From a virus (lineage: Duplodnaviria > Heunggongvirae > Uroviricota > Caudoviricetes), in the IMG/VR virus record IMGVR_UViG_3300012347_000364, positions 1 to 25,018 of that record: a stretch of 25,018 nt of DNA; one strand, given 5' to 3'. The notes beneath the pieces are model-generated. The model was not told the DNA's origin. It saw nothing but the letters and a program-made list of their open reading frames with translations, and searched no databases. A program made the translations under genes and the position numbers. Shown piece by piece: positions 998 to 1,250 of the stretch; within the stretch, counting starts at the first letter, position 1, and every line of letters begins with the position of its first letter.

Positions 998-1250
998 TGG
1001 GATGAATACAGCATACCAAAAATACTGACTAAAGTGTCAGGTAGAAATACCTAGGTTAGGAGAATGGTCTGGTGACATTACCCTCGCTAAGCCCTAGTAG
1101 GACTTAGAGACCTTGCCCCCGAAAGCGGCAACCAGGCGCAGCGCCTAGCTGATATGCCGAAGAATCGGATAGTTTAGTGGGGATCCCCGTAAGGGTGCTT
1201 TCACTTAGTTGGAAATAACTAAAAAAGATTTCCCAATCATCCCGTTGTTT
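998..1250 (+). ncRNA. Structured RNA unit 1 (about 250 nt)
   Basis: Closing stem GGGATGA(999-1005)/TCATCCC(1237-1243), then ATACAGCAT on the 5' side and a GTTGTTTT tail; many internal helices with GAAA/GTAA tetraloops. Confidence 0.7.

Follow-up and report, generated by a model that had tools for sequence, protein, structure and literature searches.

A conserved structured RNA, a candidate Y RNA relative, beside the gene of a predicted Ro60-like DUF2828 protein in a T4-like phage

The DNA analysed here (the window; 25,018 nt, positions 1 to 25,018 of IMG/VR virus record IMGVR_UViG_3300012347_000364) is the start of the 222.8-kb genome of a T4-like phage, whose gene content includes a gp43-type polymerase, UvsX and a gp41-type helicase. 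A 245-nt non-coding element, designated U1 (999–1243, + strand; coordinates are those of the window unless stated otherwise), was found to be a genuine, conserved, structured RNA. The gene of a DUF2828 protein with a predicted Ro60/TROVE-like fold begins 255 nt downstream, and the ends of U1 are shared with a family of RNA units in the same region. We consider it fairly probable that U1 is a Y RNA-like partner of this Ro-like protein and that its large module, which is not of the tRNA type, serves as scaffold or decoy.

Structure and conservation of U1

Homologues were collected by a search with the DUF2828 protein, which gave 61 IMG/VR loci (51–84% identity); the gene ended a tRNA array in nearly all of those having enough upstream sequence. 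The upstream DNA of these relatives could hardly be aligned by BLAST, similarity being confined to the ends; by eye, the U1 architecture was kept with different helix sequences. A covariance model trained on 12 long forms matched 30 full-length U1 homologues in uncultured T4-like phages, each of them upstream of the gene and on its strand. Covariation was computed on the model-fitted alignment of 34 matches, 30 of them these full-length homologues. About 11 U1 helices were retained. Standard pairs filled 92.7% of the cells, versus 79.1 ± 0.6% in shuffles and 35–44% with slid partners, and compensatory cells numbered 168, versus 46 in shuffles and 7–23 in slid controls. Two-sided changes were seen at 31 of 54 pairs. 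More than 50 G.U cells were compatible with the + strand only, indicating that this is the RNA strand.

Folding energy was marginal: z = −1.83 on the + strand, with 7 of 200 shuffles folding equally well, and z = −3.06 on the − strand. An Rfam scan gave no match to U1 at the gathering threshold, nor, over 850–1550, at E up to 10, where no self-cleaving ribozyme, group I/II intron, tmRNA, RNase P RNA or ROOL/GOLLD match was obtained. With marginal energy and an empty Rfam result, the decision rested on the homologues. A blastn search of 988–1497 against 50,697 phage records found no match. MAFFT with RNAalifold, applied to all homologues or to the 3′ domain, recovered only the helices P1 and P8 because the interiors misalign, so covariance-model alignment was needed.

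U1 is closed by P1, a 7-bp stem between GGGAUGA (999–1005) and UCAUCCC (1237–1243), with 97.5% of cells paired in the 34 aligned matches and double changes from G-C to A-U and from A-U to G-C. Just inside it lies the boundary signature AU-ACAGCAU (1006–1014; family consensus NU-WCAGCAA), of which CAGCA was invariant across the U1 family. The covariation alignment and the homologue sequences gave hairpin P2 (CAG-CA-UA ... UA-CUG, 1009–1027), with a conserved C.A mismatch. The alignment also gave hairpin P3 (AGGUA-GAAA-UACCU, 1039–1052), which in homologues is longer and carries an inner GUAA hairpin. In the central domain (1054–1133), a tentative P4 (GGUU/AACC, 1054–1057/1130–1133) surrounds P5 (GGUCU/AGACC, 1066–1070/1108–1112), P5a (1071–1073/1080–1082), P5b (CUAAG/CUUAG, 1087–1091/1103–1107, plus CCU/AGG, 1093–1095/1099–1101) and P6 (UUGCC...GGCAA, 1113–1117/1127–1131), the last with a conserved CCGAAU-type loop. 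The central-domain helices were 94–100% paired in the covariance alignment, each with two to four double-change pairs. P4 overlaps the 3′ strand of P6 and, read by eye, has just 2–4 bp in a register that shifts among homologues.

In the 3′ part, all four pairs of hairpin P8 (CCGA-AGAA-UCGG, 1157–1168) showed double changes. P7, P9, P9a and P10 lay outside the covariance model and were inspected sequence by sequence, which gave three to six different compensating versions of each. A hairpin of unrelated sequence occupied the position of P7 (AGGCG-CAG-CGCCU, 1134–1146) in every long-form homologue, with stems such as CCUGU/ACAGG, CCGUA/UACGG, GCCUGA/UCAGGC and GUCUAC/GUAGAC. P9 (AGUG/CACU, 1176–1179/1202–1205) occurred in four versions, the others being CGUG/CACG, CGCU/AGCG and GUGC(G)/(C)GCAC; it surrounds GGG (1180–1182) and hairpin P9a (CCC-GUAA-GGG, 1186–1195). 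For hairpin P10 (UAGUU(G)-GAAA-(U)AACUA, 1206–1221) the homologues had UGGUU/AACCA, GUUUU/AAAAC and CUGUU/AACAG. GGG in the P9 loop can pair with CCC (1232–1234) near the 3′ end. These strands were co-retained (96% paired in the covariance alignment), and their joint replacement by GUUC...GAAC in three homologues indicated a probable pseudoknot. Directly 3′ of the closing stem stands GUUGUUUUU, which opens the tail GUUGUUUUUUGUUUGUU (1244–1260; family consensus G-U-U-R, U-rich beyond). A CAGC/GUUG pseudoknot joining the two boundary motifs was also considered and was excluded by geometry, since a 3-nt linker is too short to span 11 bp.

A first-pass annotation, made from the letters alone, had proposed that this gap encodes a tertiary-folded functional RNA, with scaffold and decoy among the roles suggested, and is no spacer. 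That proposal is borne out by the 30 full-length homologues with compensatory changes and by the candidate pseudoknot, in an RNA matching no Rfam family at E up to 10. The refutation that it had proposed failed: energy was only marginally better than in shuffles, but the helices were conserved in homologues. Its nine complementary segments were all present where it had placed them, and seven correspond to helices conserved in homologues, either by covariation or by reading of the sequences: GGTA-GAAA-TACC (P3), GGTCT/AGACC (P5), CTAAG/CTTAG (P5b), TTGCC...GGCAA (P6), CCGA-AGAA-TCGG (P8), CCC-GTAA-GGG (P9a) and TTAGTTG-GAAA-TAACTAA (P10). Two were not conserved. In 10 of 12 long-form sequences a G.A sits at the centre of CTGAC/GTCAG, which also overlaps the conserved P2 and P3, and the 3′ strand of the long-range CTAGG/CCTAG helix sits inside the P7 hairpin. 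The closing stem P1, the P9 stem and the probable pseudoknot were absent from that annotation. Its description of U1 as rich in GNRA loops was overstated: GAAA (1044–1047), GUAA (1189–1192) and GAAA (1212–1215) are true GNRA loops, while only the P9a loop is GNRA family-wide, AGAA is not GNRA and the P6 loop is of the CCGAAU type. It had rightly set tmRNA and hammerhead aside, neither being matched in the Rfam scan. The ribozyme it had offered as one option was not supported, with no ribozyme or intron match and no conserved catalytic core recognised.

The unit family and its shared ends

Two further units follow U1 on the + strand: Unit 2 (1287–1412), which reads AGACUAG-GU-ACAGCAA ... CUAGUCU-GUUGUUUUU, and the minimal Unit 3 (1422–1473), whose tail reaches into the ribosome-binding site of the next gene. 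Judged from sequence, the family is modular, with a common “handle” and a different “cargo” between the handle strands of each member. The handle consists of a 6–8-bp stem joining the ends, (A/U)CAGCAA placed 2–4 nt after its 5′ strand, and a G(U)-rich stretch just past its 3′ strand. U1 is read as a family member with a different and much larger cargo than its sibling tRNA mimics, described below.

The handle was sought mechanically in 381 kb of non-redundant loci, as a 7-bp stem followed by 2 nt and WCAGCA, with the complementary strand no more than 450 nt away and a G after it. This gave 119 units on the gene strand, versus 9 on the opposite strand and 6 in shuffles. Their lengths were mostly 40 to about 280 nt, and their consensus was UU-RGGWURR-NU-WCAGCAA ... 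YYAWCCY-GUUGUUU; in the 118-unit position table CAGCA is imposed by the search pattern, and the evidence comes from the positions flanking it. Within the 222.8-kb genome, the seven units that have an RGG/RGA-type stem and a GUU tail all fell in the tRNA/DUF2828 region, namely U1, Units 2 and 3 and four more in the tRNA array. Five further + strand matches to the strict pattern in this genome look like chance matches because they have neither the RGG/RGA-type stem nor the GUU tail.

By eye, three of those four array units (genome positions 216335–216452, 216698–216813 and 218590–218786; in our locus numbering, L073 4336–4453, 4699–4814 and 6591–6787) carry a permuted T arm, hairpin and D arm, one of them also with an anticodon-like arm. 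The Rfam YrlA model did not reach E = 1 on these three. Units of relatives, with T arm, hairpin and D arm, matched it end to end at 31–40 bits (threshold 69), with E values of 2e-5 to 9e-3 in a 62-kb scan and 8e-7 in a single-locus search, indicating that the family includes bona fide Y-RNA-type tRNA mimics.

Large cargo was also seen outside the U1 type. At four related loci (L012 912–1115, L026 2683–2916, L027 586–821 and L028 2678–2913) a 204–236-nt unit replaces U1 in the same tRNA-Thr(GGT) context; it has the stem AGAGUAG/CUACUCU, is invisible to the U1 model and represents a predicted second large cargo type.

The phage units resemble the Class I RNAs of Dictyostelium (RF01414) in having a short end-joining stem, 3 nt, ACAGCAA, a variable part and UG past the 3′ strand. 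Short units of relatives at L005 53–108, L004 1297–1353 and L051 2394–2448 aligned end to end with Dicty_Class_I_RNA at 32–33 bits, below the threshold of 41.5, and Unit 3 (1423–1474) scored 19.7 bits, also below it. Class I was the sole Rfam family, other than tRNA and YrlA, that the short units approached. U1 itself gave no Class I match; the core ACAGCA and its position are nevertheless shared. The defining features of Class I RNAs are a short terminal stem and CCUUACAGCAA beside its 5′ strand (PMC7919456), and Staphylococcus and Aeromonas phage units read CUU-ACAGCAA, as in this 11-nt motif. They differ in being eukaryotic, 42–65 nt long and bound by the RRM protein Rnp1A; U1 is four times larger. 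DDB_G0281243, whose function is not known, was one of four proteins pulled down with Class I RNA (bioRxiv 10.1101/2020.04.05.026054).

Some public annotations overlap units: 113–121-nt “tRNA-Ser/tRNA-OTHER” features in Cronobacter phage S13 (L066 4395–4637), the 45-aa ORF140 of Campylobacter phage CP81 (L193 3861–3998), and in Aeromonas phage LAh_9 (L197 3878) a start codon of the DUF2828 gene placed so far upstream that the reading frame passes through two units. These are probably mis-annotations. One uncultured relative carries a two-piece permuted tmRNA gene of the alphaproteobacterial type (L050 7007–7345; RF01849, 98 bits; RF04321, 100 bits).

The DUF2828 protein and its linkage to the units

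The gene downstream of U1 (1498–2922, +) encodes a 474-aa protein, the putative partner of the units. Pfam assigned it to DUF2828 and DUF7788, not to TROVE, and PHROGs to “RNA-binding protein”. Pfam records DUF2828 not only from viruses but also from eukaryotes. An AlphaFold model based on 54 sequences (pLDDT 91, pTM 0.90) comprised a HEAT-repeat ring and a vWA domain. In a structure search of the PDB, the top 13 matches were all Ro60/TROVE proteins (Xenopus, human, Deinococcus and Thermus phage phiLo) over the full length, with E values of 1e-9 to 2e-6 and TM scores of 0.46–0.63; below them came isolated vWA domains only. Swiss-Prot structure matches were Ro60, telomerase p80 and TEP1, all RNA-binding TROVE proteins. 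A sequence profile against the PDB gave only non-significant Ro60 matches (E 0.2–0.9), and a single sequence gave none. The model thus predicts a Ro60/TROVE-like fold. The family comprises 6141 clusters at 50% identity and is found in 711 deposited phage genomes; its mycobacteriophage homologues carry the label “Ro-like RNA binding protein”.

Linkage was also examined without reference to the protein. A 16-mer from the 5′ end of U1 was used to scan IMG/VR, and mostly chance matches were returned. A complete U1 was present at nine loci, and DUF2828 lay directly downstream on the same strand in all eight that could be assessed, the ninth contig stopping 232 nt past U1. DUF2828 was present at only 2 of the 71 incomplete (chance) matches.

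Fourteen cultured phages of very different lineages with DUF2828 were read for the handle (6-bp stem, 1–4 nt, usually 3, and ACAGCAA), and it adjoined DUF2828 in 12 of them, with hosts among Cyanobacteria, Proteobacteria, Firmicutes and Actinobacteria: Synechococcus phage BUCT-ZZ01, Stenotrophomonas phage DLP6, Cronobacter phage S13, Felix O1-like coliphage JLBYU32, Sinorhizobium phage phiM12, Mycobacterium phage Snenia, Listeria phage P100, Campylobacter phage CP81, Staphylococcus phage S-CoN_Ph1, Enterococcus phage 113, Bacillus phage BcoS-136 and Aeromonas phage LAh_9. Each had at least two units (up to about eight), but BUCT-ZZ01 and DLP6 had one each. Some of these units were tRNA mimics, and in several phages minimal units abutted the ribosome-binding site of the DUF2828 gene.

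In the T4-like phage the tRNA array comprises 37 genes, running from 212.4 kb to the contig end and then through 1–990 of the window. Its final member is a tRNA-Thr(GGT) with encoded CCA (917–990, +), and U1 begins 8 nt downstream of it, within the 507 non-coding bases that separate this tRNA from the DUF2828 gene. An extended −10-like element, TGTATAAT (1266–1273, +), was read between U1 and Unit 2 from the sequence and the homologues. A consensus promoter scan did not call it; the homologues have full TTGACT-17-TATAAT promoters at this place. ORFs of 53 aa (1104–1265, −) and 57 aa (1209–1382, +) overlap U1 and Unit 2, and RNA covariation accounts for the sequence. The array also holds a tRNA with a CTA (amber-reading) anticodon (130–204), called tRNA-Pyl by ARAGORN and scoring 47.8 bits with the Rfam tRNA model; such tRNAs were also seen in relatives L005, L012, L014 and L057. 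Downstream of the DUF2828 gene (3002–4717) lie genes for an RNase H-like protein (PF04308), an AhpC/TSA peroxiredoxin and a CMD-family protein, the latter two forming a redox pair unusual for a phage.

Other RNAs beside phage tRNA genes were compared. ROOL and GOLLD are likewise phage-borne, with many helices and a function that is not known; they differ in length (roughly 580–800 nt versus 245 nt), and U1 has no sequence or structure match to them. A ROOL-like RNA with its own promoter was found in Listeria phage P100 (L072 1468–2019; 86 bits, E 6e-16, gathering score 99.1), between the tRNA genes and three units upstream of the DUF2828 gene; it adjoins units, yet was rejected as a handle carrier since it has no handle. 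An RtcB-type “tRNA splicing ligase” gene lies 1.3 kb downstream at this locus. The T4 stable RNAs C and D (species 1 and 2) are also non-tRNA stable RNAs ending a T4-type tRNA array. They were rejected as relatives, having neither the handle layout nor homology to U1, and no DUF2828 gene was found in the 8 kb around the T4 tRNA cluster, the stretch to which that search was confined.

A Y RNA-like partner and its alternatives

U1 resembles the Y RNAs of Ro60/Rsr (YrlA, Rfam RF02553; Yrl1/Yrl2 of Thermus phage phiLo) in that it is encoded beside the gene of a predicted Ro60-fold protein, its 5′ and 3′ ends pair in a stem (P1, with compensatory changes) with a variable module between, several different RNAs occur per genome, and the context is that of phages and tRNA genes. 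A permuted tRNA mimic is shared with YrlA by the sibling units, not by U1. Bacteria and phages have YrlA RNAs next to Ro60 (PMC4201824), the Ro60 of phage phiLo binds host PNPase along with two Y-like RNAs of the phage (PMC12135203), and a Ro60-like protein near the tRNA genes of coliphage Bas63 counters Ppl defence (PMC11482910). The end signature of U1 is common to small RNAs beside a Ro60-like gene in diverse phages, which makes an oversized Y RNA relative the most likely reading.

Under this reading, U1 would be a stable non-coding RNA derived from the transcript of the tRNA array or, in relatives, from a promoter of its own. We infer that it is physically bound by the adjacent Ro60-like DUF2828 protein and that the handle would be the docking site, as the Y RNA stem is on Ro60. 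Where sibling units bear permuted tRNA mimics like YrlA, U1 would present a module of about 230 nt with about 11 helices and a probable pseudoknot. The module would most likely act as scaffold, tether or decoy, recruiting another macromolecule to the Ro-like ring or excluding one; candidate targets include a host exoribonuclease, a defence nuclease and an RNA-repair enzyme.

Several observations weigh against this reading. The covariation alignment was model-fitted, which biases its figures towards structure; even so, the slid controls are clear, as is the variety of stem sequences. U1 itself was found in about half of the related loci, other large units replacing it elsewhere, and two of the 14 cultured phages with DUF2828 (Vibrio nt-1 and Aeromonas Ahp1) had no unit within 3 kb. 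With 245 nt, U1 has about double the length of any Y RNA described (80–130 nt). It has no tRNA-like part, and 999–1243 gave no YrlA or tRNA match at E up to 10. The partner candidate is a DUF2828/DUF7788 protein and not a Pfam TROVE protein. The 5′ side of U1 reads GGGAUGA-AU-ACAGCAU and that of the family (A/U)CAGCAA, and the handle has neither of the known Ro60-binding motifs GGUCCGA and GNCGAAN0-1G (PMC4201824). A literature search found no paper tying ACAGCAA to Ro60.

Alternatively, U1 could be a free-standing functional RNA independent of DUF2828, such as an unrecognised ribozyme or an RNA that acts on a host factor as decoy or sponge, with the boundary serving as a processing or stability signal of tRNA-array RNAs. 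The large, multi-helix, probably pseudoknotted module exceeds the needs of a protein handle, the boundary recurs all along the tRNA array, as far as 10 kb from the DUF2828 gene, and a U-rich tail with a terminal stem could block exonucleases or terminate transcription. We nevertheless regard this as unlikely: the boundary tracks DUF2828 across phages with unrelated tRNA-processing contexts and is found in the 5′ leader of the gene as well, DUF2828 lay downstream of U1 in every assessable contig, and ribozyme or intron matches were not obtained.

Termination and promotion could also explain the layout, the units being transcription or processing cassettes (terminator-like stems and early promoters, as in T4-type promoter/stem-loop cassettes) and U1 a spacer that folds by chance. 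U-rich tracts after each closing stem, sigma-70-type promoters between units in relatives and the modest folding z-score of U1 agree with this. A terminator, however, needs no 230-nt interior with 10 covarying helices over 30 divergent homologues, the closing stems, just 7 bp long and AU-rich, span as much as 280 nt, termination makes no use of the invariant CAGCA, and sibling interiors are tRNA mimics, so that we find the explanation very improbable. Still harder to sustain is a role of U1 as a leader of the DUF2828 mRNA that acts in cis, whether as a riboswitch-like element or as an autoregulatory operator. U1 does lie upstream of the gene in the same orientation, and the protein could well regulate its own synthesis through Unit 3, which adjoins the ribosome-binding site. 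Units 2 and 3 and the promoter-like element intervene, however, U1 is 2.2 kb upstream of the gene in L008, and in other phages units lie downstream of it.

Beyond the preferred reading of U1 as a Y RNA-like partner, a wider one is possible, if doubtful: the handle “stem-N3-ACAGCAA” might serve a DUF2828 branch of the TROVE proteins as a universal recognition element, both in eukaryotes and in phages that infect at least four bacterial phyla. Dictyostelium Class I RNAs, so far regarded as peculiar to dictyostelids, would be its eukaryotic members, with partners including a DUF2828-type protein (candidate DDB_G0281243), and the system would carry large folded cargo beyond tRNA mimics.

Ro60–Y RNA particles are a long-standing puzzle; in the current view Y RNAs gate the Ro ring and link it to other enzymes. 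To our knowledge, very few cargo modules of Y RNAs have been described, namely PNPase-binding loops and tRNA mimics. The locus described here suggests a much larger, phage-wide branch of the Ro60–Y RNA system with its own docking signature, in which one phage can hold a whole repertoire of cargo modules, U1 being the largest and most elaborate. The handle offers a search key for such RNAs in hundreds of cultured phages, including well-studied ones of Listeria, Staphylococcus and Campylobacter and coliphages, where parts of them are now annotated as small ORFs or odd tRNAs. Given the counter-defence phenotype of one such protein (PMC11482910), these RNAs may belong to an anti-defence or tRNA-protection device.
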